A DNA stretch of 64,000 nucleotides from Candidatus Krumholzibacteriota bacterium. Lineage in GTDB: Bacteria > Krumholzibacteriota > Krumholzibacteriia > JAJRXK01. A program made the position numbers and the translations under genes. Positions 5,796-41,869 of this stretch are shown in pieces. Position 1 is the first letter of the stretch; each line of letters starts with the position of its first letter. The stretch is taken from positions 8,801 through 72,800 of the forward strand of contig CAWDWO010000009.1 in the NCBI GenBank assembly GCA_963806035.1, written 5' to 3'. A model generated the notes under the pieces. That model was not told the origin of the DNA. It ran no database searches and saw only the letters and a program-made list of their open reading frames with translations.

Positions 5796-6725
5796 ATGTT
5801 TCTTCCCCTCAAGGATCACAACCCGACCACCATCCGTCCCACGGTGACCATCGGGCTCATCGCGCTCAACTGTTTCGTCTTCCTCATCGAATTGGGGCAC
5901 GGGCCCAGTCTCCCGTACTTCATCGCCCACTGGGGCGCGGTTCCCTACGCTTTTACTCACTTTGGCGAGGTCGTGGCCGTGGGAAACAACTTCCCCGCGA
6001 CTGGGGGCCCCTCGCCCTTCTGGATCACCGGAATCACCAGCATGTTTTTGCACGGAGGATGGGCGCACCTTCTGTTCAACATGCTCTTTCTGTGGATCTT
6101 CGGAAACAACGTCGAGGATTTCTTGGGTCACTTCCGCTACCTGGTGTTCTACATCGTCACCGGACTTTTGGGACTTTGCACCCATGTCTTGCTTCATCCC
6201 TCCTCCACCATTCCCGTGGTGGGCGCCAGCGGCGCGATCAGCGGCGTGTTGGGCGCCTACATGGTTCTCTATCCGCGGGCGCGCGTGACCACCCTGGTCT
6301 TCCTGCTCTTCTTCGTGACCTTCATCGAAGTGCCTGCGGTCGTCCTCTTGGGCTTCTGGATCATCTTGCAGCTCTTCTCCGGTCTGGGAAGCCTGGGCCA
6401 CGGAGGGAGCGGAACGGCCCACTGGGCCCACATCGGCGGCTTCGCGGCCGGTTATCTCATTCTGCGCTTCTGGCTGGCCAAGGAGTTGGTGTCGGCGCGG
6501 CGACGCGTCGCGGCGGGAGCGGCGGGAGCGGCTGCAAGTGGCGGAACCTTCGCGGAAGGCTTCGCGGCGGCGCGCGCGCGCAGTAGCTCTTCGACCACGC
6601 CCGGCTTCTTCTCCACGGGTGACGACTATCCCCCGCCACCCCCCAAGGTGGGGCATCGCTTCGGCGGCGATCCCATCGGCAACTTTCTCGAGGAAATCGA
6701 GCGCAAGGACGAGGACGATTCCTGA
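5796..6725 (+). CDS. rhomboid family intramembrane serine protease
   Basis: Multi-TM protein with a GASGAISGV (GxSG) motif and a downstream catalytic His in TM6 (AHIGGFAAG). It has a Pro/Gly-rich C-terminal tail. Confidence 0.8.
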   Translation: MFLPLKDHNPTTIRPTVTIGLIALNCFVFLIELGHGPSLPYFIAHWGAVPYAFTHFGEVVAVGNNFPATGGPSPFWITGITSMFLHGGWAHLLFNMLFLWIFGNNVEDFLGHFRYLVFYIVTGLLGLCTHVLLHPSSTIPVVGASGAISGVLGAYMVLYPRARVTTLVFLLFFVTFIEVPAVVLLGFWIILQLFSGLGSLGHGGSGTAHWAHIGGFAAGYLILRFWLAKELVSARRRVAAGAAGAAASGGTFAEGFAAARARSSSSTTPGFFSTGDDYPPPPPKVGHRFGGDPIGNFLEEIERKDEDDS

Positions 6726-6733
6726 GCGGAGGA

Positions 6734-8164
6734 TCAACGCTTGCGCAGCAAGCGCAGCGCTTCCTGAAGCTCCTTCACGCTGTTCACGCGCAGCACCGTC
6801 AAGACCAAGAACCACCCCAGCGCGCTCAAAACCGCCCGCAGCCACAGCGCCTGCCCGCGCAGCAGTACCGTGATCAGGATCGCGGCGGCCAGGGCCGAGA
6901 GCGCGCCGCCGGCCGAGGACCAGAGCGGAACTCTGAATCCCGCGCGGCGAGCGTAGTAGAAGTAGAGGACCAGAGTCAGACCGTAACTGACGAAAGTGGC
7001 AAGAGCCGCGCCCTGGATGCCCATGCGCGGAATCAGGAGGGCATTGAGAATCACGTTTGCCACGATGCCGATGGCGCCGATGGGAAGCAGATCGCGTTCG
7101 CGATCGGCGGCGAAGAGGAGGCGCACCATCATGTGGCATCCGGCCTGCAGGGCGATCGCCCAGGCCAGAACGCGCAGGGCCCCCACCGCGGGCAAGAACT
7201 CGCTTCCGGCCATCACGCGCACGATGAACGGGGCGAAGATCCACACCGCGATGGCCAAGGCGGAGCAGAAGACCAGCGTGACCCGCGTGCTGCCGCCGAT
7301 CAATGCCACGGTCGGCGCCTCGCCCTTTTCACGCGCCAACCGAAGTTGCGGATAGACGGCGGTGGCGAGAATGCGCGGCGCGAGCACGACGACGTCGATC
7401 ACGCGCACCGCGACTCCGTAGTAGCCCCAGAAGCGCTCATCCACCATTCGACTCAGCATGAGAATGTCGATACGGTGAAAGAGTAGACTCAATACGGTGG
7501 CGCCCATCAGGGGTACCGCGGCGCGCAGGAGCCGCCGGACTTCGTCGTTTTCCACTTCGCGCAGCGAGAGCCGGCCGAAGTTTCGCCGCAGGAAACGCGT
7601 TCCCACCAGGGCGCGCACCAGGCAACCCAAGGTGATTCCCGTCACGAAGCCCAGGATACCCAGCCCGAAGAGCAGGGCAGCAGTGGCGAACACGAAGATG
7701 CTGGCCGAGGAGAGCAGCATCGTGCGCGTGATGTAGTCCATGCGTTGGGCGCCCTGGAACACGGCGTCGGCGATGTCGCTGATGTTCTCCAGGAAGACGA
7801 TGGTCCCCAAAATGAGGACCACGTGCAGCACTGCGCTGGGGTAGTGCAGCTTCCACACCGCGAAGATCAAGATCAGGTAGGCGATCGCGGACAGGAGAGT
7901 TTTGACCGCGGCCGCGGCCGAGGCGACACGCGTCGTGTCCCTGCGATCGTCGGCGACCTCGCGGGTGACCAGGTAGTCCAGTCCGCCGCCAGCCAGCACC
8001 CTGCCGACTTCGATGAAGGTATTCCCGGCCGTGTAGAGTCCGTAGCCCGCCGCGCCGAGGATGCGCGTGGCAAACATGGTCAAAAGGATGCTGAAGAACT
8101 TCGACGCGCCGTGGGCGAGACTCAAGAATACGGTGTTGCGCGCGATGCGCCCTCGGTCTGCCAT
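6734..8164 (-). CDS. polysaccharide biosynthesis flippase (Wzx/MOP superfamily)
   Basis: 476-aa polytopic membrane protein with typical MOP flippase-family topology and composition. Confidence 0.7.
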   Translation of the reverse strand: MADRGRIARNTVFLSLAHGASKFFSILLTMFATRILGAAGYGLYTAGNTFIEVGRVLAGGGLDYLVTREVADDRRDTTRVASAAAAVKTLLSAIAYLILIFAVWKLHYPSAVLHVVLILGTIVFLENISDIADAVFQGAQRMDYITRTMLLSSASIFVFATAALLFGLGILGFVTGITLGCLVRALVGTRFLRRNFGRLSLREVENDEVRRLLRAAVPLMGATVLSLLFHRIDILMLSRMVDERFWGYYGVAVRVIDVVVLAPRILATAVYPQLRLAREKGEAPTVALIGGSTRVTLVFCSALAIAVWIFAPFIVRVMAGSEFLPAVGALRVLAWAIALQAGCHMMVRLLFAADRERDLLPIGAIGIVANVILNALLIPRMGIQGAALATFVSYGLTLVLYFYYARRAGFRVPLWSSAGGALSALAAAILITVLLRGQALWLRAVLSALGWFLVLTVLRVNSVKELQEALRLLRKR

Positions 8165-30364: not shown

Positions 30365-31231
30365 GTGCCGAATCAAGAGTCCCCTCTTTTGCGAGCCCAC
30401 GAGCTCTTGCGCCAGAGCGGTCTGCCCCCGCTACAGATCCAAAACGCGGGTCGTGGCAGCAACCACCATCTCTTCATCGTGGAGCTGGACGAAGGGCCTT
30501 TGCAACTTCTGCGCATGCCCGTCGATTCCGAGGCGGGACCGCGGCTGCGCAGCGAGGAAGAGGCGATTCGCCGCGCCTCGGGGACCGTCCCCGTGCCTCA
30601 TCCCACCCTTCTCATCCCCTCCCTGCACCGTCCCAAAGCCTGTATCCAGCCGATCATCGAGGGAACCCGGGCCCAGGATCTGCGTGCGCATGACACGAAT
30701 GCGCGACGGGTCGATCTTCTCTGCCGGCTCTTGGGGCGGGAGCTCGCTCACCTGCACCGCATCGAGTTTCCCATGCACGAACCCACCTTCATCCCCTTCT
30801 TGAGCCCCAGCTTCGTGACGGGGAACGAACGCCTGCTCCATGGAGATGCTCATCTGGGAAATCTCATGGTGCAAACCGACGCCAAGGAAAACGTACGGGT
30901 CTCCGGGCTCATCGACTGGAGCTTCTGTCACTGGGGTCCGCCGGAAAGCGATCTGGTGGAAATGGCGATCACCGAAGGAGAGCCACGCCCCGCGCTCGGC
31001 CGGGCATTCTACGAGGCCTATCTGGAAAGTGGTGGGCTCGAACCGCGCGAGCACGTCTTCAAGTGGGCTCTGGTGCGCGAGCTGGAGAGAAGACTCGCGG
31101 CGCATGCGCAGGCCTACGAGCAGACCCCGCGCGACGCCTGGACGCGCTGGCTGGACGCTCTGCACCGTCCGGGAGCCCGTGCCCTTCAGGTTTTTTCTTT
31201 GGGCCGCCCCTCCGGGGGCGACCTGGTCTAG
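30365..31231 (+). CDS. phosphotransferase-family kinase (APH/choline-kinase-like)
   Basis: Catalytic HGDAHLGNLMV and IDWSF motifs of the aminoglycoside phosphotransferase fold. Confidence 0.65.
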   Translation: MPNQESPLLRAHELLRQSGLPPLQIQNAGRGSNHHLFIVELDEGPLQLLRMPVDSEAGPRLRSEEEAIRRASGTVPVPHPTLLIPSLHRPKACIQPIIEGTRAQDLRAHDTNARRVDLLCRLLGRELAHLHRIEFPMHEPTFIPFLSPSFVTGNERLLHGDAHLGNLMVQTDAKENVRVSGLIDWSFCHWGPPESDLVEMAITEGEPRPALGRAFYEAYLESGGLEPREHVFKWALVRELERRLAAHAQAYEQTPRDAWTRWLDALHRPGARALQVFSLGRPSGGDLV

Positions 31232-31305
31232 CCTCGGACTGGTCTAGCCTCGGACTACTCTAGCTTCGGACTACTGCTGGCCTCGGACTACTGCAGCCTC
31301 GGACT
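31225..31305. repeat. five tandem copies of a 16-17-nt repeat (consensus ACTNNNGCCTCGGACT) between convergent genes
   Basis: ggtctagcctcggact x2, actctagcttcggact, actgctggcctcggact and actgcagcctcggact read in sequence. The first copy contains the kinase TAG stop. A degenerate sixth copy runs into the amidase 3' end. Confidence 0.6.
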
Positions 31306-31314
31306 GCTCCAAGC

Positions 31315-33015
31315 TCAGAGCCTGGGGTGCTTCAGGTTCCAGCCGCTGGCGCGTTGGTAGGCCGTGGCCAAAGCCACGATCGCCCCCTCCTCGTAATTGC
31401 GTCCCACGAAGGTGAAACTGAAGGGGGTCCCGTCACTCTTGAAACCGTTGGGCACGACCACGCAGGGATTGCCGGTGAGATTGGTGTCCAGGAGACTGCG
31501 GCCGGCAAAGCTCGGGCACACATAGCCGTCCAGATCCTCGAGCATCGTCTGGTAGCGTTCCTGCAGGAGAGTGCGCGCCCGTTGCGCCTGCAGATACTGC
31601 ACGCCCGACACGAGCTGCGCGGCACGGAAAACATTGGGCCAGGCATCTTCGGCCTGCCGCACCATTTCGTCGTCGCGATTGTTCCGGGTGAGCTCGTCGA
31701 AGGCCGCCGCCGCTTCCACCTCCAGCACCACCAGCATCTTGGCCACGGGTAGATCCGGCAATTCGATGGGAGTGAGTTCGACCCCCAGCCGAGCGAGCAC
31801 TGCGAGCGCATCCTGGTCGAGCTTCTTGTTCTCGTACTCGCTTTCGAACGCGGCCTTGTTGTAGCCGAAGCGCAGCTCCTTCAACTCGTCGAGCGAAGGC
31901 TGACGCCACGGTGCACTGACCGCGTCCTTGTCCTTGCCGTCGGCGCCATGGATGGCGGAGACCACCAGCGCGGCGTCCTCCGCGTAGCGGCATAGCGCTC
32001 CGATCTTGTCCATGGTCCACGAGAGCGCCATGCAGCCGGTGCGAGGGACGCGACCGAAGGTGGGACGCAGCCCGGTCGCGCCACAGCGCGAGGCAGGGGA
32101 GACGATCGAACCGAGAGTCTCCGTCCCCAACGCGAAGGGCAGGCCCCCCGCCGCCACCGCGGCCGCGCTCCCGGCCGACGAACCGCTGCTTCCCTGCTCC
32201 AGGTTCCAGGGGTTCTTGGTCGTTCCACCGAACCACACGTCGCCCCAGGCCAGCGCGCCCACGCTGGTCTTGGCGATGAGCACCGCCCCCGCCGCGTCCA
32301 GGCGCTTCACCACTTCGGCGTCCTCATCGAGGATCTGTTCGCGATAGGGCGCACAGCCCCAGGTGGTCGGATAGCCCTTCACCGCCAAGAGATCTTTCGC
32401 TCCCCAGGGGATACCGTGCAGGGGACCCCGATAGTGACCGGCCGCGATTTCCTCGTCGGCCTTGGCCGCCTGCTCCATCGCTCGCTCCTGCGTGAAGGTG
32501 ATCACGCACAGCAGTTTTTCGTTCAGCTTGCGCAGGCGATCCAGAAAGAAGCGGGTCAACTCCACACTGGTGAGCTTACGAGTTTGCAGAAGGTGTGAGA
32601 GCTCGAAGAGGGAAGCGTAAGCCAGCTTCTCGGGCAATGGACGCGCGAGGGAGGCATTCGAATCGTAGGGATCGAGTGCTTTCGAGATGGCGGCATAGTC
32701 GGGCGGTTCCGGGAAGGGTACGCGCGACACCGCCTGCCGGCTCAGAGGAAAGAAGCTCGTGGCGGGCTGCACCTCGTTGGCGAGATGGAGTTTCTCCACC
32801 GCCTTCAAATCATTCAGATGTTCCTGCACGCTCTTGAGCATCAGCTCGCGCTCGGACTCGCTGAACTGAAGCCCCGCCAGACGCTCGGCGCTGGCAATGG
32901 TGTTCAGGTCGATCTCGGAATCTTGCGCCTGAAGCAGCTGAGGCATGAGTGCGAGTACGATGGAGGAGGCAGCGGCACTGCCCAAGAAACGACGGCGGTC
33001 CAAAGTTTTGCTCAT
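31315..33015 (-). CDS. Tat-exported amidase (amidase-signature family)
   Basis: Twin-arginine signal MSKTLDRRRFLGSAAASS, and the amidase signature GGSSGSSAGSAAAVAAG with a catalytic Ser-cisSer-Lys context. Confidence 0.8.
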   Translation of the reverse strand: MSKTLDRRRFLGSAAASSIVLALMPQLLQAQDSEIDLNTIASAERLAGLQFSESERELMLKSVQEHLNDLKAVEKLHLANEVQPATSFFPLSRQAVSRVPFPEPPDYAAISKALDPYDSNASLARPLPEKLAYASLFELSHLLQTRKLTSVELTRFFLDRLRKLNEKLLCVITFTQERAMEQAAKADEEIAAGHYRGPLHGIPWGAKDLLAVKGYPTTWGCAPYREQILDEDAEVVKRLDAAGAVLIAKTSVGALAWGDVWFGGTTKNPWNLEQGSSGSSAGSAAAVAAGGLPFALGTETLGSIVSPASRCGATGLRPTFGRVPRTGCMALSWTMDKIGALCRYAEDAALVVSAIHGADGKDKDAVSAPWRQPSLDELKELRFGYNKAAFESEYENKKLDQDALAVLARLGVELTPIELPDLPVAKMLVVLEVEAAAAFDELTRNNRDDEMVRQAEDAWPNVFRAAQLVSGVQYLQAQRARTLLQERYQTMLEDLDGYVCPSFAGRSLLDTNLTGNPCVVVPNGFKSDGTPFSFTFVGRNYEEGAIVALATAYQRASGWNLKHPRL

Positions 33016-33185
33016 GGCGAAGTACTCCCCTCTGATAGGACCTTGCCAGTATCCCCCATGATCCCCGTCGTAGTCGCGGATGAAATCTCCCGGACTCGAC
33101 GAAGGGCGAATTTGCGCCTATCCTGGGCTGCAATCTCGCGACGGAAGGCCACGGAGCTCGGATCTGTCGCCTGGAAAGAGGGGCC

Positions 33186-34082
33186 ATGGCTCAGGAACGC
33201 CGCTATGTGAAGAGAGAGGGCGCACCCCTCATGACCACGACTCTGTGGGATTACCGCTCGCAGAACTATCCCGGAAGCCGTCAGGGAAATCCCGACTTCG
33301 CCGGAGCCACTCCCAGCTACATCATCTGGAACCTGCTACAGCGCTACACGCAGCCCAAGTGGCTCGTGGTGGATCCCATGGCGGGAAGCGGAACCACCCT
33401 GGACGTGGCCCGTGATCTCTCGCGCCGCGCTCTGGGTTACGACCTGAATCCCACGCGCAAGGATATTTTCCGCGCCGACGCCAGGCACCTGCCCCTGGAA
33501 TCGGGGAAAGCGGATTTCGTCTTCGTGGACCCCCCCTATTCCACGCACTTGAAGTACAGCGAAGAGGAGGAGTGTATCGGGGAACTCGATGCTCGAGTGG
33601 GGCCCGAGTACTTCTCCGCCATGGAGAGCGTGATCGCGGAGGTCCACCGGATTCTGCGCCGCGATCGCTACCTGGCGCTCTACGTGAGCGACTCCGCGCG
33701 CAAGGGGAAGAGCTTCGTCCCGCTCGGCTTCGAGCTCTTCCACCGTCTGAGACGACACTTCACCCCGGTGGATATCGTGGCCGTGGTTCGCCACAACCGC
33801 ACTCTCAAACGCGACCACTGGCACGAGAGCGCGGCCGAAGGCGGCTATTTTCTGCGGGGCTTCAATTACCTCCTCATCATGAAGAAGGAGATCGGCGCGA
33901 AGAAGGCGACGAGTGGCGTGGGACGCAGTTCGAGCAAAGCCGGTCCAAGCAAGCACCGCGCGAGCAAGCGGCGCCCCAAGAATGCCGCGACCAAACCGCG
34001 CGCCAAGCCGGTCGCCAATTCGCGATCCAAGTCACCGTCCAAGTCGCAACCCAAATCTCGATCCAAGACGCCGAAATCCTAG
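33186..34082 (+). CDS. SAM-dependent nucleic-acid methyltransferase (motif I DPMAGSGTT, motif IV DPPY) with a lysine/serine-rich histone-H1-like C-terminal tail
   Basis: VVDPMAGSGTTLDVA and VFVDPPYS are read in sequence. The last ~65 aa are highly basic with KSPSK/RSKSPSK/KTPKS SPKK-like repeats. Confidence 0.6.
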   Translation: MAQERRYVKREGAPLMTTTLWDYRSQNYPGSRQGNPDFAGATPSYIIWNLLQRYTQPKWLVVDPMAGSGTTLDVARDLSRRALGYDLNPTRKDIFRADARHLPLESGKADFVFVDPPYSTHLKYSEEEECIGELDARVGPEYFSAMESVIAEVHRILRRDRYLALYVSDSARKGKSFVPLGFELFHRLRRHFTPVDIVAVVRHNRTLKRDHWHESAAEGGYFLRGFNYLLIMKKEIGAKKATSGVGRSSSKAGPSKHRASKRRPKNAATKPRAKPVANSRSKSPSKSQPKSRSKTPKS

Positions 34083-34099
34083 ACCACGGGAGATCCGCA

Positions 34100-34672
34100 T
34101 TGAGTCTCACACCCTGGAACATCCACCGCGACGAAACCCTGGCCGACATGGGCATCTTCGAGCTGCATTCGGTGCGCGCGGAAAATCCGCGTACCGGCAA
34201 GCTGCGTGATCTCGCGCTCGTCTCCACCCGCGACTGGGTGAACGTGGTTCCGCTCACTGCGGATCGCGAAGTGGTGCTGGTCAGACAGTGGCGTCACGGA
34301 ACGCGTTCGATGACCCTGGAGATTCCCGGCGGCCTCATCGACCCCGGCGAGGAACCAAAGACGGCGGCGGCGCGCGAGGTGCGCGAGGAGACTGGATATG
34401 CCGGAGCAGAACCCGCGCAATTGGGCGTGGTCCAACCCAATCCCGCGTTCTTGAACAACCTCTGTTACACCTATCTCATCGAGGGCTGTGAGGAGGTGGG
34501 CGAGCTGCAACTGGATGAGGGTGAGGATATCGAGGTCGTCCGCGTTCCTCTGTCCGAGATCCCTGGACTCGTCGCCGAGGGGACGATTCAGCACGCCCTG
34601 GTGATCTGCGGGTTCTACTGGCTCCGGCGCAAGCGCCCCGAACTCTTCGACGGCCGCGGTGAAATCAGCTGA
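34100..34672 (+). CDS. Nudix hydrolase (ADP-ribose pyrophosphatase-like)
   Basis: Nudix box GGLIDPGEEPKTAAAREVREETG. A likely TTG start at 34100 has GGGAG 9 nt upstream, 18 nt after the methyltransferase stop. Confidence 0.7.
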   Translation: MSLTPWNIHRDETLADMGIFELHSVRAENPRTGKLRDLALVSTRDWVNVVPLTADREVVLVRQWRHGTRSMTLEIPGGLIDPGEEPKTAAAREVREETGYAGAEPAQLGVVQPNPAFLNNLCYTYLIEGCEEVGELQLDEGEDIEVVRVPLSEIPGLVAEGTIQHALVICGFYWLRRKRPELFDGRGEIS

Positions 34673-35141
34673 TCCGCGTGGCGAAGATGTAGAGCAGAGC
34701 CAGGGCGGCAAAAAGCGCCACTCCTCCGAGAAGCATGATCGCGGGTTGCAGAGGCCGCTGCTCGTCGCCCGACGCGCGAGCGATGATCAGGGCCGCCACC
34801 ACGACGACCACCGAGATGATCACCACCGCCAAAGGCAACATCTGCTGCGCGTGGGGAATCACGCCACTCTGCACCCCGAACACGGCCAGGCCGACGAGCA
34901 GAATCGCGGTGACCATGAGGGCGATGGCAACCGCCCCCCAGTTCGCGCGAGGATTGGACCGCGTCGAAACGCTCGTCAGGCGGAGAGCCGTCCACACCTC
35001 GCGTTCGTTCACTTCGGGATGCTTTTCCCTGAAGTCCTGGATCTGGGCGATGAGCTTCTGGGCGAGTTCCCGTGCGCGCGGGGACGCGGGGGGCAGGGCA
35101 GCGGGTGGGATGAAGGTCATGACCGGCACCTCCCGGGCCAA
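34665..35141 (-). CDS. hypothetical small membrane protein
   Basis: 158-aa ORF with two or three hydrophobic helices. No family recognised. Confidence 0.35.
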   Translation of the reverse strand: MAREVPVMTFIPPAALPPASPRARELAQKLIAQIQDFREKHPEVNEREVWTALRLTSVSTRSNPRANWGAVAIALMVTAILLVGLAVFGVQSGVIPHAQQMLPLAVVIISVVVVVAALIIARASGDEQRPLQPAIMLLGGVALFAALALLYIFATRIS

Positions 35142-35188
35142 GGGTCCATGTTTGACCTTAGATCAACCCGCAAAAATGGCAACTGGGA

Positions 35189-36724
35189 CTACGGCGCCTT
35201 CACCGCTCCCAAGTCCCATGCCGTGCCCGAGCGCGTCTGCTGCAGGATGTCCCAACCGCGATCGGTCACGCCGGGATCCCAGTTGGGGTGCTGTGCATAG
35301 CTGAACGCCGCAATTCCCGCGCCCTTGGCGGGCGATTGCGCGGAGAGCGCGAAGTCGCGCGCGATCTCGAGCACTCGGTCGCTGCGCAGGACCGCGGTGC
35401 TGGGGATCCGCGGCGCGCTCAGACCCGCGGCCGCGCCGACGACACCGTGCGCTTCGGAGCTCAGATCCAGGTCACTCGTCGCGACGTTACCGTCGCTGAG
35501 ATTGTAGTCGTGGCTCACGCCGCCGGCGCCTCCCTCGCGCACCCAGATCAGGCGTCCGTCGCCGGAGGCCGCGGGCTGATTGGACTGGAAGATGTTGTTG
35601 AAGATCCAGGTATTGCCGACCGGCACGCGATTTCCGCGCAGTTCGAGGACTGCTCGCAGCTTGGAGCCGCTGTTACCCCAGAAGGTGTTGTTGTAGACCC
35701 AAACGTCGTCGCTGTTCATCACCGCCAGAGCCGCGTCGCCCTTGCATCCGACGAAGATGTTGTTGCGCACGATGGCGCCACGCACCACGTGCTGCGTTGG
35801 GTCGGGGATCCCCGCTTCCTCGGTCCCGATTCCCACCGCCGCGTTCCCGCAACCACCTCCCGCCGAGGGGCCGAAGACGTTGTTCTCGTAGAGGACGTTC
35901 TCGCAGTTGATCTTGGAGTACAGGAGCCAGTCGCCGCCATGGTCCGCGGTGTGGAAGAGCCAGCAGCCCCTGATCACCACATTGCGAATCTCCGCGTCGC
36001 TCGTCCCATTCAAGCCCCTGCCGAAGATGTCGATGTTCTCCTGGTACCACGCGCCGTTGCCGCAGGGGTCGATCGAGGGGTCGCGTTGCCCCGGATTGAA
36101 GGCCACCACGTTCTCGATCAAGAGGCCGTCGACCGCGCCCGAGACCTTGATGACATCACAGTCGTTGGGCGCGTCGTAGATCACGCAGTTCTGGATCTCA
36201 CAGCCGCTCGCGTCCAGCACGCGCACCAGACCATCGCCCTGGGGCCCCTGGTTCCAGTCGCCCCGGATCTCGAAGCCATCGATGGCCGCCCCCTGAACCT
36301 GCTCCAAGCGCACCGCGCTGCGGTCTTTCGAGTAGATGGACGCGGCCAGCGGACCGTCGGCGGAGATGACGCGCACCCCCGATTTCATATAGATGAAGCT
36401 CTCGTCGTACTCGCCGGCCTTCACCAGGACCGCCATCCCGGCCGCGCTCTGATTCACTCCCTTTTGGATGGTACGGCAGGGATGATCGGGATCGCCGCAG
36501 TCCGAAGTGTCGCTCCCGTTGACGGAGACGTAGATCGCGGGCCCGGTCCAGTCATTGCCGCCGCTTCCCGAACCGCCGCCGCCGGGGTTGGGGTCCACGG
36601 TGGGGATGTCGAGATCGGGCGAAGTGGTCGTGGGCGTGGTCTGATTGCCGCAGGCGATCAGGGCCGAGAGCGAGAGGGCGAAGACGAGCGAGAACATGAG
36701 ATACGTATGGGTACGAGTGGTCAT
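35189..36724 (-). CDS. lipoprotein with right-handed parallel beta-helix repeats (pectate-lyase-like fold)
   Basis: Lipobox LIACGN, a Gly/Ser linker, then repeated NxxI/V...G beta-helix-type segments (NNIFVGC, VYNNTFWGN, IFNNIFQSN). Confidence 0.6.
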   Translation of the reverse strand: MTTRTHTYLMFSLVFALSLSALIACGNQTTPTTTSPDLDIPTVDPNPGGGGSGSGGNDWTGPAIYVSVNGSDTSDCGDPDHPCRTIQKGVNQSAAGMAVLVKAGEYDESFIYMKSGVRVISADGPLAASIYSKDRSAVRLEQVQGAAIDGFEIRGDWNQGPQGDGLVRVLDASGCEIQNCVIYDAPNDCDVIKVSGAVDGLLIENVVAFNPGQRDPSIDPCGNGAWYQENIDIFGRGLNGTSDAEIRNVVIRGCWLFHTADHGGDWLLYSKINCENVLYENNVFGPSAGGGCGNAAVGIGTEEAGIPDPTQHVVRGAIVRNNIFVGCKGDAALAVMNSDDVWVYNNTFWGNSGSKLRAVLELRGNRVPVGNTWIFNNIFQSNQPAASGDGRLIWVREGGAGGVSHDYNLSDGNVATSDLDLSSEAHGVVGAAAGLSAPRIPSTAVLRSDRVLEIARDFALSAQSPAKGAGIAAFSYAQHPNWDPGVTDRGWDILQQTRSGTAWDLGAVKAP

Positions 36725-36817
36725 CGTGCACCGTCACGGAGAGGAAGATACGCAGCAGGAAATTTCCGCGACAGTCAAGACAGCACGATTGATGCCATTT
36801 GCGAGCCTGGGGTGCGG

Positions 36818-38308
36818 TCAGCCCCCGAGCAACCAGTGCATCGAGGCGTCCGCGAAGGCCTTCACCGGGCTCCAGTAGAGCCCCAGCACCAGGGTCGGCA
36901 CGGCGAGAACCACCAGAAGCACCATGTGAACCGGCGAAAGCCCCAGGCCCCCCTCGTCTTCAGAATGCTCGAAGAACATGGCTTTGGCGATGCGCATGTA
37001 GTAGTAGAGGCTGATCACGCTGTTGAGGACCGCGATGAACGCCAACCAGCCCATCTGCCCGTCGATCGCCGCCGCGAAGAGGTAGAATTTGGCGATGAAT
37101 CCGAAGGTGGGCGGAATTCCCGCGAGCGAAAGCAAGAAGACCACCATGATGACCGCGAGCAGGGGCTCGCGGAAGCCGATGCCCCGGTACTCGTCGATGT
37201 CCTCGCTGCCCAGGCGGTTGTTGAGCGCGATCACGACCAGGAAGGCGCCCAGATTCATGATGGCGTAGGCGATGAGGTAGAACAGGATGGCGGACAGGCC
37301 GGCCTCGCTCAAGAGCACGAAGCCGATGAGCAAGTAGCCGACGTGCGCGATGGAGGAATAGGCCAGAAGCCTCTTCACGTTCCTCTGACGAATCGCGGCC
37401 AGGTTTCCCCAGGTCATGGTGATCACGCTCAAGAACGCCAGCAGCCATGGCCACTGGATACTCGAGAGCGCCGCCATGGTGCCCGCGCCGTCCGATTGCA
37501 CCAGAGCGGTGTAGAAGAAGCGAATGAGGAGAGCGAAGCCGGCCGCCTTGGGTCCGGCCGCGAAGATCGCGGCCACCGGGGTTGGCGCGCCCTCGTAGAC
37601 GTCCGGCGTCCAGAAGTGGAAGGGCACCGCGGAGATTTTGTACCCGATCCCGGCCAGGATCAAAACGCAAGCGGTGAGGGTAGCCAGTTCGTTGCCCCCG
37701 AACACCAGTCTGTCGTGCAATCCGGTGAAGGACATCGCCCCGCTCAGGCCATAGAGAATGGAGGCGCCGTAGAGCATCAAACCGCTGCTTACCGCGCCCC
37801 AGAGCACGTATTTCAGGGAGGCCTCCGAGGAACGGAGGCTCATGCGGGCGTAGCCGGCCAGAATGTAGCTGGTGATCGAGACCAGCTCGATGGACAGGAC
37901 CAGCATGACGAGGTTGTTGGCCTCGGCCATGACCATCATGCCGAAGCAGAGCACCGCCAGATAGGCGTAGTACTCGCCCTTGTTCTCGCGGTCAGCTCCC
38001 ATGATTTCGCGGCTGCTGAAGCTGAATACGGCCACGATGAGGGTGACGGCCAAAAAGAGCACGCGGAAGAACTGGGCGTAGGGATCGACCACCATCATGG
38101 TCCCCATGATATCGTGCGCCCCGCGCGGCGGATTGGCGACCGCTACCGCGAGCGCCACGACCACGCCCAGAATGAGAACGCTCAGCGTCGCTCCATGACG
38201 GCGTTCACGCGTCAACAAATCCGTCAGCAAGCAGGCCACGAAGGTCAGGGCCATGATTGCCTCGGGCCAGAAGAACGCCGCGTCAGACCAGTTGAAACTC
38301 ACCGTCAT
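36818..38308 (-). CDS. nuoN: NADH-quinone oxidoreductase subunit N
   Basis: 496-aa antiporter-like subunit, last gene of the colinear nuo cluster. Confidence 0.85.
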   Translation of the reverse strand: MTVSFNWSDAAFFWPEAIMALTFVACLLTDLLTRERRHGATLSVLILGVVVALAVAVANPPRGAHDIMGTMMVVDPYAQFFRVLFLAVTLIVAVFSFSSREIMGADRENKGEYYAYLAVLCFGMMVMAEANNLVMLVLSIELVSITSYILAGYARMSLRSSEASLKYVLWGAVSSGLMLYGASILYGLSGAMSFTGLHDRLVFGGNELATLTACVLILAGIGYKISAVPFHFWTPDVYEGAPTPVAAIFAAGPKAAGFALLIRFFYTALVQSDGAGTMAALSSIQWPWLLAFLSVITMTWGNLAAIRQRNVKRLLAYSSIAHVGYLLIGFVLLSEAGLSAILFYLIAYAIMNLGAFLVVIALNNRLGSEDIDEYRGIGFREPLLAVIMVVFLLSLAGIPPTFGFIAKFYLFAAAIDGQMGWLAFIAVLNSVISLYYYMRIAKAMFFEHSEDEGGLGLSPVHMVLLVVLAVPTLVLGLYWSPVKAFADASMHWLLGG

Positions 38309-38311
38309 CTC

Positions 38312-39823
38312 CTAGCCGGGGATCATCCCGATGAGGGTGATGAGCGAAGTCTTGACCATGTTGATGAAGGGCGCCGGATAGACTCCGATGAAGATCACGA
38401 TGGCCGCCAGAGGGATCACCGTGGCCAGCTCGCGAGCGTTGATGTCCGGGATATCGGCGTACTTCTCGTTGAGGGGGCCCAAAAAGACCCTCTGCAACAT
38501 CCACAGCACGTAGGTCGCGCCGATGATGATTCCCACCGCGCTCACCATGGTCACCACGCGGTAGACGGGGAAGGCGCCCAGGAACACCAAGGCCTCGCCC
38601 ACGAAGCCGCTGAGACCCGGCAGGCCCAGAGCCGCGAACAGGGCCAAGCTGAAGACGGTGGTGTAGCGCGGCATCACCGAGCCCAAGCCACCGAAGCCAT
38701 TGATCTCGCGATGATGGGCGCGATCGTAGATGACGCCCACCATGAGGAAGAGCATGGCCGTGATCGTGCCGTGGTTGAACATCTGCAGCATCGCCCCGGT
38801 GATGCCGGCTTCGTTGAACACCGCCATCCCCAAGAGCACGTAGCCCATGTGACTCACCGAGGAATAGGCCACCAGCTTCTTCATGTCCTTCTGCGCCAAG
38901 GCGCAGAAGGCTCCGTAGATGATGTTGATCGCCCCCAGGATGGCCAGGGGCAGGGCGAACCAGCGCACCGCGTCGGGCAGGATGGGAAAGCAGATCCGCA
39001 GCATTCCGTAGGTGCCCATCTTCAGGAGCACCCCGGCGAGGATCACGCTGACCGCGGTGGGCGCCTCGACGTGCGCGTCGGGCAACCATGTGTGGAAGGG
39101 GAAGATCGGCACCTTCACCGCGAATCCGATGAAGAGGAACATGAAGATCAAGTGGCGCACGTTCACGTTCAGAAGCCATGCTCCGTGGTTCACCTGGTTC
39201 ATCATGTAGAGCATGTTGAAGGTGTGCTGCCCGGTGTTGGGATCGCGCACGTTCAGATAGAGCGCGATCATGGCCAAGAGCATCAGCACGGACCCGGCCA
39301 GGGTATACAGGAAGAACTTGATCGCCGCGTACTCGCGACGCGGACCGCCCCAGATGCCGATGAGGAAGTACATCGGGAGCAGCATCACTTCCCAGAACAC
39401 GTAGAAGAGGAAGAAATCGAGCGAGACGAACACTCCCATCATGCCGGTTTCCAACATGAGGAAGAGGGCAAAGTAGCCCTTGGTCGCCTTCTCGATCTTC
39501 CAGCTCGCTCCGATGCACAAGAACGACAGAAGGGCGGTGAGCAGAACCATCGCCACCGAGATGCCGTCCACCCCCACGAAGTAGTCGATGTTGAAGCCAC
39601 GGATCCAGGGGGTCTTCTGCCAGAACTGAATGGCGGAGGTTCCCCGGTCGAAGCTGAACATGAGCTGGATTGCGAGAGCGAGTGGGATGGCAGCGGTCAC
39701 CAAAGCCGTCCATCGATGCGCCGTCTTGTTGTTCGACGGCAACATCACCAGGATGGCCGCGCCCAGAAGCGGCACGAATGTCATCCAGGTCAACAGCGCG
39801 CTGGGGTTCGCGAGTTCGGTCAT
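38312..39823 (-). CDS. nuoM: NADH-quinone oxidoreductase subunit M
   Basis: 503-aa antiporter-like subunit with conserved NuoM motifs. Confidence 0.85.
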   Translation of the reverse strand: MTELANPSALLTWMTFVPLLGAAILVMLPSNNKTAHRWTALVTAAIPLALAIQLMFSFDRGTSAIQFWQKTPWIRGFNIDYFVGVDGISVAMVLLTALLSFLCIGASWKIEKATKGYFALFLMLETGMMGVFVSLDFFLFYVFWEVMLLPMYFLIGIWGGPRREYAAIKFFLYTLAGSVLMLLAMIALYLNVRDPNTGQHTFNMLYMMNQVNHGAWLLNVNVRHLIFMFLFIGFAVKVPIFPFHTWLPDAHVEAPTAVSVILAGVLLKMGTYGMLRICFPILPDAVRWFALPLAILGAINIIYGAFCALAQKDMKKLVAYSSVSHMGYVLLGMAVFNEAGITGAMLQMFNHGTITAMLFLMVGVIYDRAHHREINGFGGLGSVMPRYTTVFSLALFAALGLPGLSGFVGEALVFLGAFPVYRVVTMVSAVGIIIGATYVLWMLQRVFLGPLNEKYADIPDINARELATVIPLAAIVIFIGVYPAPFINMVKTSLITLIGMIPG

Positions 39824-39880
39824 CGGTCGAGTGCTCCTTCATGGGTGGACGGCGCTGCCGTCCGGTTCAGTCGTGCCCCG

Positions 39881-41869
39881 CTACGAGGGCCACGCCACTC
39901 GATACACGAGAATGAGAATTACCAGCCCCGAAATCAGGCCGAGCAAATAGGTTTGAATCCGTCCGGTCTGCAGGCCCCGCAGCGCACTGCCAAAGCTGCG
40001 CAGCAGCTCGCCCGTACCGTTCACCAGTCCGTCGACCACGGCATTGTCGAAAGCGCCGACGAGCCAACCGAGTGCTCGCGTGAAGTAGCCCACGCCATTC
40101 ACGATGCCGTCGACGATCAATTTGTCGAAGCCGGCAACGACCGAGGCCTTGGCCAGAGTTCCGCGAATGACGGTGTCGCGGTAGATCTCGTCGAACCAAT
40201 ACTTGTTCCACAGCAGGCGGTAGGCCCCCGGGAACGCGCGCTGCACGCGGGCACTGTCGATGAGCTTCGCCTTGTAAGTGAGCCAGGAAAGGAGAATCCC
40301 CAGGCCGGCGATGGCGAGCGAGGACCACATCGCAATGATGTGAGCGCTGTGATGCACTCCGTGCTCGGCGGATTCGTGCACGCCGGGATTCATCACGAAG
40401 CGGTGGAACCAGGCGGATCCCTGTGCGGTGAGCCCTCCCGCGACGACGGCGAGCGCCGCCAGCACCATGAGCGGAATCGCCATGCTCATGCCGACTTCGT
40501 GCGCGTGATCATACTTCTTCTCGTTGCGCGGCTTGCCGGTGAAGGTCATGAAGACGATGCGGAACATGTAGAAGGAGGTGAATCCGGCCGCGAGCAGTGA
40601 CATTGCAAAGGGCAGCCAGTGAACCGGGTGCTCCATCCCGAAGGCGAGCGCCGCGGCCAGAATGGCGTCCTTGGAATAGAAGCCCGAGAACGGCGGCACC
40701 CCGGAGATGGCCAGGGTGGCCAGGAGGAAAGTGGCGAAAGTGATGGGGAGCTTGTGCCTCAGTCCACCCATCTCGCGCATGTCCTGTTCGTGGTGCATGG
40801 CGTGGATGACCGCCCCACTCCCCAAGAACAAAAGGGCCTTGAAGAAGGCGTGGGTGGTCAGGTGGAACATTCCCGCGAAGACACCGCCCACGCCCACCGC
40901 CATCACCATGTATCCCAGCTGGCTGATGGTCGAGTAGGCCAGGCCGCGCTTGATGTCGGTCTGCACCACCGCCACCGTCGCCGCCCCCAATGCGGTGATC
41001 GCTCCCACGTAAATGATGAAGAGCAGCGCGCTAGGGGTGAACAGGGGGAAGAGCCGCGCGATCATGTACACGCCGGCCGCGACCATGGTGGCGGCGTGGA
41101 TGAGCGCGGAGACCGGAGTGGGGCCCTCCATCGCGTCGGGCAGCCAGATGTGCAGCGGAACCTGCGCGCTCTTGCCGATGCACCCCATGAAGAGCAGAAC
41201 CCCGGCCGCGGTCAAAAGGCCGCCCGAGAGCACTCCGCTGTGCACGCTCTCGAAGATGTGGGTGTAGCCAAAACTACCTGTCGTCGTGAAGAAGATCAAA
41301 ATCCCCAGCCAGAATCCGTAGTCGCCCACCCGATTGACCAAAAATGCCTTTTTCCCCGCATTGGCCGCCGAGGGTTTCTTGAAAAAGAAACCGATGAGGA
41401 GGTAGCTGGCCAAACCCACCAGCTCCCAGAAGATGTACAGGAAGAAGACATTGTTGCTGAGCACGATGCCCAGCATGGCGAAAGTGAACCAGCCCAAAAA
41501 CGCGAAGTATCGCGCGTAGCGTTCGTCGCCCTTCATGTACCCCATCGAGAAGACATGCACCCAGAAGGAGATGGTGGTGACCACCACCAGCATGATGGAT
41601 GTCATGCCGTCGACCAGGATGCCCGCGTCCACGTGGAAGCGCGCGATCTTGAACCAGGTCCAGCTCGCTTCGATTTTGTAGGCAGGATCGTCCAGGGCCC
41701 AGAAGTGGAAGAAGATGCGCAGCGAGAGGATCCAGGCGATGGCGAGCGCGGTCACTCCGATGAAATCACCGCGCCGCGGCAGCTTCTCCCCCAGGAAAAA
41801 GGTGAGAAGGTAACTGAGCAGCGGGAGCCCCAGGATGACGAGCGCCATTGTGATGATTTGTTGGTCCAC
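39881..41869 (-). CDS. nuoL: NADH-quinone oxidoreductase subunit L
   Basis: 662-aa subunit with the long C-terminal extension typical of NuoL. Confidence 0.85.
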   Translation of the reverse strand: MDQQIITMALVILGLPLLSYLLTFFLGEKLPRRGDFIGVTALAIAWILSLRIFFHFWALDDPAYKIEASWTWFKIARFHVDAGILVDGMTSIMLVVVTTISFWVHVFSMGYMKGDERYARYFAFLGWFTFAMLGIVLSNNVFFLYIFWELVGLASYLLIGFFFKKPSAANAGKKAFLVNRVGDYGFWLGILIFFTTTGSFGYTHIFESVHSGVLSGGLLTAAGVLLFMGCIGKSAQVPLHIWLPDAMEGPTPVSALIHAATMVAAGVYMIARLFPLFTPSALLFIIYVGAITALGAATVAVVQTDIKRGLAYSTISQLGYMVMAVGVGGVFAGMFHLTTHAFFKALLFLGSGAVIHAMHHEQDMREMGGLRHKLPITFATFLLATLAISGVPPFSGFYSKDAILAAALAFGMEHPVHWLPFAMSLLAAGFTSFYMFRIVFMTFTGKPRNEKKYDHAHEVGMSMAIPLMVLAALAVVAGGLTAQGSAWFHRFVMNPGVHESAEHGVHHSAHIIAMWSSLAIAGLGILLSWLTYKAKLIDSARVQRAFPGAYRLLWNKYWFDEIYRDTVIRGTLAKASVVAGFDKLIVDGIVNGVGYFTRALGWLVGAFDNAVVDGLVNGTGELLRSFGSALRGLQTGRIQTYLLGLISGLVILILVYRVAWPS

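Follow-up and report, generated by a model that had tools for sequence, protein, structure and literature searches.

The 64-kb stretch of DNA analysed here (the window, with about 50 called genes), from a Candidatus Krumholzibacteriota bacterium, carries a gene for a 298-aa methyltransferase that is followed by a gene for a Nudix hydrolase. We consider it probable that this methyltransferase is a solitary S-adenosylmethionine (SAM)-dependent DNA amino-methyltransferase with a basic C-terminal tail acting as a non-specific DNA tether, and that it belongs to an orphan clade that is sister to enzymes linked to BsaWI-family restriction endonucleases. The protein falls in the same 90%-identity cluster as HKI83736.1, and both the annotation of the gene as a DNA methyltransferase and the structural class, which was recently described, were already known. 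What emerges here is the large, vertical, all-DPPY orphan clade, its position as sister to the BsaWI-associated methylases, and the variable cationic tails found across the family. A literature search returned no description of the orphan clade, of its sister relation to BsaWI methylases or of the cationic tails, and found no paper characterising the clade or M.BsaWI. An earlier inspection of the same DNA without database searches (the sequence-only reading) had described the locus accurately; its class assignment, the uniqueness that it gave to the tail and the significance that it gave to the Nudix pairing do not hold.

Profile searches against Pfam matched the methyltransferase to PF01555 (N6_N4_Mtase; 68.7 bits against a cut-off of 26.7, E = 9.1e-19) in two stretches with the halves swapped. 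Residues 11-95 corresponded to profile positions 134-219, the C-terminal part that holds motifs X and I, whereas the DPPY part comes after them and aligns to the N-terminal part of related models. Motif I (DPMAGSGTT, residues 63-71) and motif IV (DPPY, residues 115-118) have the form expected of PF01555 and are conserved in the family, although the beta order (motifs IV-VIII, target recognition domain (TRD), then X and I-III) is not that of this protein, in which motif I precedes motif IV and no TRD is present. The only significant PDB matches, by sequence and profile search, were beta-class DNA amino-methyltransferases in permuted alignments (TTHA0409, rotifer N4CMT, M.MboIIA, DpnA, CcrM and M.RsrI). 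PADLOC models for Type II methyltransferases matched at up to 1e-20, some of the best stretches ending at the C-terminal end of the model, and the defence-system library gave nothing for this protein beyond such generic models. In the viral predicted-structure library the top matches were phage DNA methylases (7.6e-15). The better of the two AlphaFold models (mean predicted local distance difference test score (pLDDT) of 74, and about 78-98 over residues 41-200) showed a core with a complete seven-stranded Rossmann fold and no extra domain, followed by a disordered C-terminal tail; residues 1-40, the segment where strand S0 of class E would lie, had a pLDDT <50 in both models.

RNA-methyltransferase models (UPF0020/RlmL, RsmD and Trm11) all scored below their cut-offs and were limited to the DPPY region; UPF0020 reached 15.9 bits against 22.3 and TIGR01177 (Trm11) 12 against 316.55, both covering residues 94-127 only. 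Neither a gamma-type N6_Mtase family nor a THUMP domain was matched in Pfam at E up to 1; only about 40 residues stand ahead of the Rossmann core, and the C-terminus is a disordered tail with no folded TRD. The published criteria for topology (or class) E, typified by M1.BcnI and M4.BstF5I, are a SAM motif ahead of the catalytic motif, less than 100 aa between the two, detection by beta/alpha profiles and no TRD (bioRxiv 10.1101/2023.12.13.571470). By these criteria the architecture of the window enzyme matches topology E (M1.BcnI type). Because its SAM motif comes first, about 44 aa separate motif I from motif IV, no TRD is present and beta-type profiles detect it, the enzyme is a circularly permuted, TRD-less beta-type N6_N4 amino-methyltransferase, neither gamma-class nor Trm11/RlmL-like. 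The sequence-only reading had correctly seen a 298-aa open reading frame (ORF) with motif I (residues 61-71) before motif IV (residues 112-119), but had taken this order to fit the gamma class or RlmL/Trm11, which the swapped PF01555 match and the sub-threshold RNA models contradict. The profile search that it had proposed for choosing between DNA and RNA families favours the DNA family PF01555, and its description of an orphan DPPY amino-methyltransferase stood, as no THUMP domain and no adjacent restriction enzyme were detected.

An exhaustive search of representatives at 50% identity, and then a second search for homologues, brought a sister clade to light. Over the entire core its members share about 46% identity with the window's clade, and they have the same architecture, including an N-terminal segment, (E)TTTLWD(F/Y)P.Q.YG...G..F.G(V/A)TP, that is invariant in both clades (T18, L20, W21, Q26, G34, G40, T42 and P43 being identical throughout). 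Motif IV was DSPY in 31/31 sampled sister members and DPPY in 30/30 sampled members of the window's clade, and the two grouped apart in a neighbour-joining (NJ) tree with a ParB-fused distant relative as its root, in which the window's clade was monophyletic. In 5/5 loci the sister gene was located immediately downstream of a gene for an RE_BsaWI endonuclease (PF18643, CCGG-family), often overlapping it; these loci included contigs of 2.6 Mb, 1.5 Mb and 3.0 Mb, as well as contigs with a protein that NCBI assigns to the Patescibacteria group. Two of them had an M1-R-M2 layout, with an extra methyltransferase of 444-455 aa upstream of the endonuclease, in which motif I comes first, followed by a long insert and then by motif IV in the form TSSPY. 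Distant same-order relatives carried N-terminal ParB_N or DCD domains, and other distant relatives were found on conjugative plasmids, some of them under the annotation DNA adenine methylase. The linkage of the sister clade to restriction genes, together with the ParB_N/DCD-fused and plasmid-borne relatives, points to DNA as the substrate of the window enzyme, an assignment that we regard as likely with good confidence.

The uncharacterised BsaWI-family systems were observed in two forms, one a restriction-modification (R-M) pair in which the methyltransferase has N- and C-terminal extensions, and the other M1-R-M2. Sister members that are the sole methylase beside the endonuclease had both extensions, whereas those paired with a second methylase had none (5 loci). 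The C-terminal extension ended in a conserved basic W-x-K/R-Y-K in 82/119 members. By analogy, these extensions are suggestive of a role for added basic segments in helping a TRD-less core to hold DNA. An exception to the restriction linkage was P0175 (locus L095), the query of the second homology search, which stands in a phage-like methylase cluster with no adjacent endonuclease. This cluster (positions 3341-7236 of L095) contains a YopX-domain gene, a DEAD/SNF2 helicase gene and three more genes that hit N6_N4 methyltransferases, one only weakly, and it has the appearance of an anti-restriction island with several methylases.

When one genome per GTDB species was scanned, a relative of the window protein turned up in at least 465 species from about 12 labelled phyla. 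Homologues at 56-93% identity to the window protein were numerous, and members of the orphan clade were 60-72% identical. The best 80 loci were labelled as Krumholzibacteriota, Sumerlaeota, Hydrogenedentota, Planctomycetota (Phycisphaerae and Brocadiaceae) and Spirochaetota, as well as Nitrospirales, Bdellovibrionota, Myxococcales, "Deltaproteobacteria", Acidobacteriota, Gemmatimonadota and Anaerolineae. Grouping in an NJ tree of the cores was mostly by taxon, and the few exceptions resembled label conflicts of metagenome-assembled genomes (MAGs). In the phage and plasmid collections no relative exceeded about 32% identity across most of the query; the matches there were distant methylases on conjugative plasmids, with alignments in the same order and 25-31% identity, and one partial 46% match fell under a phage gene annotated as parB. 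A mobile-element origin of the clade was rejected, given that no close phage or plasmid relatives were found. The gene is long-standing, chromosomal and solitary, and its inheritance is mostly vertical.

Some loci showed oddities of labelling. The methyltransferases of locus L010 (labelled Anaerolineaceae) and locus L013 (labelled Phycisphaerae) were nearly identical, and the two loci had the same 370-aa gene downstream, at matching coordinates, and loci L077 ('Bacillota') and L033 ('Pseudomonadota') nested within Phycisphaerae in the tree; these cases are probably due to MAG mis-binning or label conflicts rather than to gene transfer. The Desulfatibacillum alkenivorans member (P0401, WP_083610967.1; positions 6001-7377 of locus L006) was named both 'TRM11 family SAM-dependent methyltransferase' and 'DNA methyltransferase'.

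The surroundings of the gene had little in common from one locus to another. The 107 flanking genes from about 66 loci matched 101 Pfam families, each present in at most 4 genes, and the listed defence-library hits of these genes included no restriction-enzyme model, protein-kinase-type models appearing instead. No BsaWI-like gene was found in 87 orphan-clade loci or in the window. The sequence WCCGGW occurred 72 times in the window, against an expectation of 81 +/- 8, indicating no avoidance; this count does not reveal the specificity of the enzyme.

The 67 residues past the last core strand of the methyltransferase contained 33% K+R and 1.5% D+E (one acidic residue), with a net charge of +21, in agreement with the basic low-complexity tail of about 65 residues (234-298) that had been noticed before. 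The GC content at third codon positions (GC3) was 0.75 in the tail and 0.79 in the core, and this likeness indicates that the tail is translated in the coding frame. AlphaFold gave a pLDDT of about 50 across the tail, without secondary structure, and no other gene among the approximately 50 of the window encoded a convincing example of this kind. The SPKK-like motifs as in histone H1/Hc1 that the sequence-only reading had described were not recovered, as the tail has no strict [ST]PKK and only SPSK- and TPKS-like variants, and the window protein had no H1, Hc1 or Hc2 profile match in Pfam at E up to 1. The precomputed HC2 hit of one homologue, P0038, is probably due to composition and not to homology. 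The composition of the tail resembles that of other bacterial Lys-rich tails.

The tail statistics cover 117 top homologues with a tail that could be delimited. Basic tails of 20 aa or more were present in 103/117 (median 52 aa), all of them net positive, so that the fusion of a methyltransferase to a basic tail, previously thought unusual, is common in this family. These long tails had medians of 31% K+R and 4.7% D+E and were enriched in R, K, P, G, A and S; the charge bias held across genomes of 38% to 71% GC, and the last six residues had a mean of 3 K/R, usually forming a basic cluster at the C-terminus. Tail length ranged from 0 to about 264 aa in the family, and the closest comparison, a 93%-identical relative, had a tail of half the length, 33 aa shorter and diverging right past KKEIG. 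The sequence of the tails was not conserved, some being RGG-like and others carrying DGDKPAW repeats, such as the 213-aa tail of WP_083610967.1. Orthologues without the tail, which the sequence-only reading had named as a sign of lineage-specific drift, were found in part: about one third of the genome-derived orthologues had 12 aa or less past the core, and neither sequence nor length was conserved. In all, "histone-H1-like" is a compositional analogy only, and the tail is best described as a recurrent but dispensable and probably charge-selected appendage. In two orthologues at 69-70% identity (P0011 and P0035) the tails ended in RGG/GAR-like repeats (e.g. GGGRGGGRGGNR, GRGGKGRGGAGRGGG), a class better known from RNA-binding proteins, which keeps the alternative of an RNA substrate open.

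The neighbouring Nudix protein matched PF00293 (67.2 bits against a cut-off of 21.1, 1.9e-18) and has an intact Nudix box. The NudE model NF008736 was matched at 2.3e-21 but with 76 bits against a cut-off of 169, that is, below equivalog level, and the nearest PDB relatives were Thermus thermophilus Ndx2 (2yvm, 2.8e-19), NudF and ADP-ribose pyrophosphatases (1e-19 to 1e-12). A Nudix gene 18 nt downstream with its own ribosome-binding site had been reported before; the gene is real and GGGAG is located 7 nt upstream of its start, but the spacing is 17 nt and the start codon is TTG, the same start being called in the 93%-identical syntenic relative (L001), from which the locus context was also read. 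The gap is likewise 17 nt in that relative and becomes a 4-bp overlap in more distant ones. The operon suggested by the sequence-only reading was supported, since no terminator-like site was found between the two genes and the Nudix gene is probably co-transcribed with the methyltransferase gene. The pair was kept in six related loci (L001-L005 and the Krumholzibacteriota genome L008), whereas no homologue of the Nudix was found within 6 kb in 81 loci of other lineages. The pair is thus a stable operon specific to the Krumholzibacteria lineage and not a family-level association.

In the explanation that we favour, the enzyme is a compact Rossmann domain of about 220 aa and seven strands with the SAM-binding half (X/I) ahead of the catalytic half (IV, DPPY), and it would flip the target base into the DPPY pocket and methylate the exocyclic amino group of this base. 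DPPY would favour adenine N6; cytosine N4 may also be the target, because the sister enzymes partner CCGG-family endonucleases and a large partner with an SSPY motif. Target recognition may be achieved by surface loops and by the invariant N-terminal segment TTLWDY..Q.Y..QG..F.GATP, standing in for a TRD. The polycationic disordered tail would most likely confer a sequence-independent electrostatic affinity for DNA, by tethering or sliding, and could make up for the missing DNA-binding domain, with selection acting on charge only and not on sequence. As to origin, the enzyme belongs to an old orphan clade with mostly vertical inheritance, whose sister group comprises small methyltransferases protecting DNA from BsaWI-family (CCGG-type) enzymes, and the Nudix would be a Krumholzibacteria-specific neighbour and not the functional partner of the family.

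Several points weigh against a tail-tethered DNA methyltransferase. The assignment of DNA as the probable substrate comes from homology and from the gene context of the sister clade, one family member bears the NCBI name "TRM11 family SAM-dependent methyltransferase", and some beta-type enzymes (M.EcoGII, METTL3) act on RNA (PMC7544214). The tail appears dispensable for core activity, given that about one third of the genome-derived orthologues are almost tail-less; RGG-like tails would suit RNA equally well; and the most conserved segment, residues 15-40, is of low confidence in both AlphaFold models. An RNA methyltransferase (rRNA or tRNA m2G or m6A, related to Trm11, RlmL or RsmD), with the tail tethering it to structured RNA or to the ribosome, would agree with that NCBI name and with the RGG-like tails, as well as with the I-to-IV order and DPPY found also in Trm11, RlmL and RsmD, the weak local matches to UPF0020, Cons_hypoth95 and TIGR01177, the high conservation of a chromosomal, vertical and solitary clade, and the position of the gene near truB, ribF and nrnA in a few Phycisphaerae. 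We nevertheless judge it unlikely, as the RNA-methyltransferase models remain far under their cut-offs and cover only the surroundings of DPPY, no THUMP or other RNA-binding domain is present, and PF01555, to which both halves of the protein show homology, is a family of DNA methyltransferases. In the locus checked the truB context was convergent, and only a few Phycisphaerae loci had such a context; the ranking of the fold search is skewed by sequential aligners, which are unable to match permuted beta-class structures. High conservation was rejected as an argument for an RNA substrate, because the sister clade, at about 46% identity and restriction-linked in 5/5 loci, is equally conserved (medians of about 70% in both clades); it is a property of this compact enzyme type, in which one small domain both recognises and methylates. 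That the enzyme belongs to an R-M system with its endonuclease encoded elsewhere or recently lost is most improbable: the closest relatives outside the clade are restriction-linked and Type II methyltransferase hidden Markov models match, but no restriction enzyme was found among the immediate neighbours in the approximately 66 loci, from many phyla, nor a BsaWI-like gene in the 87 loci or the window, WCCGGW is not avoided in the window, and the clade is monophyletic and mostly vertical, as is typical of long-standing orphans (PMC4752239).

That the tail represents neutral low-complexity drift at an expansion-prone 3' end, an idea orthogonal to the identity of the substrate, is doubtful. Its unconserved sequence and variable length (also given as 2 to 262 aa), the divergence of the 93%-identical relative right after the core, the orthologues with 12 aa or less, and the lack of an H1/Hc1/Hc2 profile match are what drift would leave; the bias, however, is strong and consistent, as 103/103 long tails are net positive whatever the GC content of the genome (38%-71%), most end in a basic cluster, no other window gene has a convincing tail of this kind, and a conserved basic motif persists at the C-terminus of those restriction-linked sister enzymes that work alone. 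A functional module of methyltransferase and Nudix, in which the Nudix might clear methylated or ADP-ribosylated nucleotides connected with the activity of the methyltransferase, is very unlikely. The close spacing (17-nt gap or 4-bp overlap) without a terminator between the genes would suit it, as would the retention of the pair in the Krumholzibacteria-lineage loci although the methyltransferases are only 70-73% and the Nudix proteins 60-63% identical. The neighbourhood comparison showed instead that the pairing is not family-wide, being seen in the six Krumholzibacteria-lineage loci and absent from the 81 others; a Nudix was found in 3/107 flanking genes, all from this same lineage, and the protein is of the ordinary ADP-ribose/ADP-sugar pyrophosphatase type.

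A more far-reaching version of the DNA-methyltransferase explanation is put forward tentatively, as a possibility that we hold to be less probable than its alternative. The DPPY clade might be a phylum-spanning, vertically inherited epigenetic DNA methyltransferase, a counterpart of Dam and CcrM domesticated from the methylase of a CCGG-family R-M system, in which the tail would replace the DNA-binding domain, keep the enzyme on the nucleoid and allow processive or relaxed-specificity methylation. Its hosts would then include Planctomycetota (Phycisphaerae and Brocadiia), Hydrogenedentota, Sumerlaeota, Krumholzibacteriota, Spirochaetota, Nitrospirota, Bdellovibrionota and others.

Compared with known systems, and going by the published description (bioRxiv 10.1101/2023.12.13.571470), the window enzyme resembles class E (M1.BcnI = M.BcnIA; M4.BstF5I) in its SAM motif placed first, the gap of less than 100 aa, the absence of a TRD, the beta/alpha profiles and the small size; however, M1.BcnI-type enzymes sit in restriction systems whereas the window's clade is solitary, and the sources consulted mention no long basic tail in these enzymes. 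M.BcnIA comes from a two-methyltransferase system and also methylates single-stranded DNA, and the same is true of DpnA of DpnII (PMC5974420); the BcnI and DpnII systems resemble the M1-R-M2 layout of the sister-clade loci. The sister DSPY clade itself is alike in core (about 46% identity), architecture, the invariant TTLWD.P.Q.YG...G.TP segment and degree of conservation, and many of its members have a short basic C-terminal extension. It differs in DSPY versus DPPY, in its location beside a restriction gene (5/5 loci versus never in the window's clade), and in that the short extension ends in W-x-K/R-Y-K whereas the tail of the window's clade is long, variable and polycationic.

Beta-class PF01555 enzymes (M.RsrI, M.MboIIA, CcrM, DpnA, TTHA0409 and rotifer N4CMT) are homologous in both half-domains and have motif I (FxGxG type) and DPPY, and CcrM also needs an extra C-terminal DNA-binding part; in contrast, the halves of the window enzyme are reversed, with no TRD between them and a disordered tail in place of a folded C-terminal domain. 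Conserved orphans such as Dam, CcrM and the families of Blow et al. 2016 (PMC4752239) likewise have no cognate restriction enzyme, are conserved in relatives and are chromosomal, but the window's clade spans many phyla and not one class, and belongs to a different structural class. Trm11/RlmL (UPF0020) enzymes have the same I-to-IV order and DPPY, unlike the window enzyme in the THUMP domain that it lacks, in the UPF0020 and TIGR01177 scores, which are sub-threshold, and in its homology outside DPPY, which is to DNA methyltransferases. The tail shares with histone H1 and Hc1-Hc2 a Lys/Ser/Pro/Ala/Arg-rich, predicted disordered and strongly cationic character; it differs from them in having no profile match and no strict SPKK repeats, and in not being conserved even at 93% identity.

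If the clade is active on DNA, it would represent one conserved methylation mark across many poorly studied and mostly uncultured phyla, and would clearly illustrate how a methylase from a restriction system can be domesticated as a host gene. The tail-bearing and tail-less orthologues also provide a natural experiment on disordered cationic tails substituting for DNA-binding domains. Public annotation alternates between "DNA methyltransferase" and "TRM11 family", and gene context favours the former. For the window alone the finding is modest: the methyltransferase gene, though uncharacterised, had been annotated before, and the Nudix gene next to it is an ordinary one.

The features of the locus, together with the BsaWI-family systems of the sister clade, are listed in Table 1.

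Table 1. Positions of the methyltransferase and Nudix features in the window, and of the BsaWI-family systems in their own loci.
Feature	Position	Strand	Basis or remark
Methyltransferase gene	33186..34082	+	298 aa; ORF call; PF01555, permuted, TRD-less
Conserved N-terminal segment, residues 15-43 (LMTTTLWDY..Q.Y....QG....F.GATP)	33228..33314	+	Family alignment; candidate recognition element
Motif I, SAM-binding loop VVDPMAGSGTT, residues 61-71	33366..33398	+	Sequence; aligns with 2zie and 8s9m
Motif IV, catalytic VFVDPPYS, residues 112-119	33519..33542	+	Sequence; DPPY = residues 115-118
Basic low-complexity C-terminal tail, residues 234-298	33885..34079	+	Composition, pLDDT, GC3
Methyltransferase stop codon	34080..34082	+	TAG
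Intergenic spacer, 17 nt	34083..34099	+	GGGAG at 34088-34092 = Nudix ribosome-binding site
Nudix hydrolase gene, 190 aa, TTG start	34100..34672	+	PF00293; ADP-ribose/ADP-sugar pyrophosphatase type
Nudix box GGLIDPGEEPKTAAAREVREETGY (G-x5-E-x7-REUxEExGU), product G78-Y100	34331..34399	+	Translation of 34100-34669
BsaWI-family systems	L089 5342-6975; L090/L091 3278-5002; L092-L094 3336-4831; L096 1984-4681; L098 240-3070

The neighbours of the methyltransferase gene encode an amidase, the Nudix hydrolase, a protein with weak beta-helix likeness and a small product for which Pfam gave no hit. A promoter and terminator scan of positions 32900-35300 gave no promoter-like site, and the sole terminator-like site in this interval falls inside the methyltransferase ORF, at chance-level frequency; the scan of this interval is uninformative. 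A 1770-aa ORF at 35288-40600 (+) lies antisense to several genes of the minus strand, among them the nuo (NADH dehydrogenase) genes that start at about 36818. It is not a gene but a long spurious ORF of the kind typical of a genome with 63% GC. The blocks at 30365-33015 and 34665-36724, around the methyltransferase-Nudix pair, are syntenic in the closest relative (L001) and contain an APH-type kinase, the amidase (probably Tat-exported), the small conserved product without Pfam hits, the weakly beta-helix-like protein and the nuo operon. Farther relatives retain parts of this block, namely the kinase and the nuo genes in L004, and the kinase and the amidase in L005.

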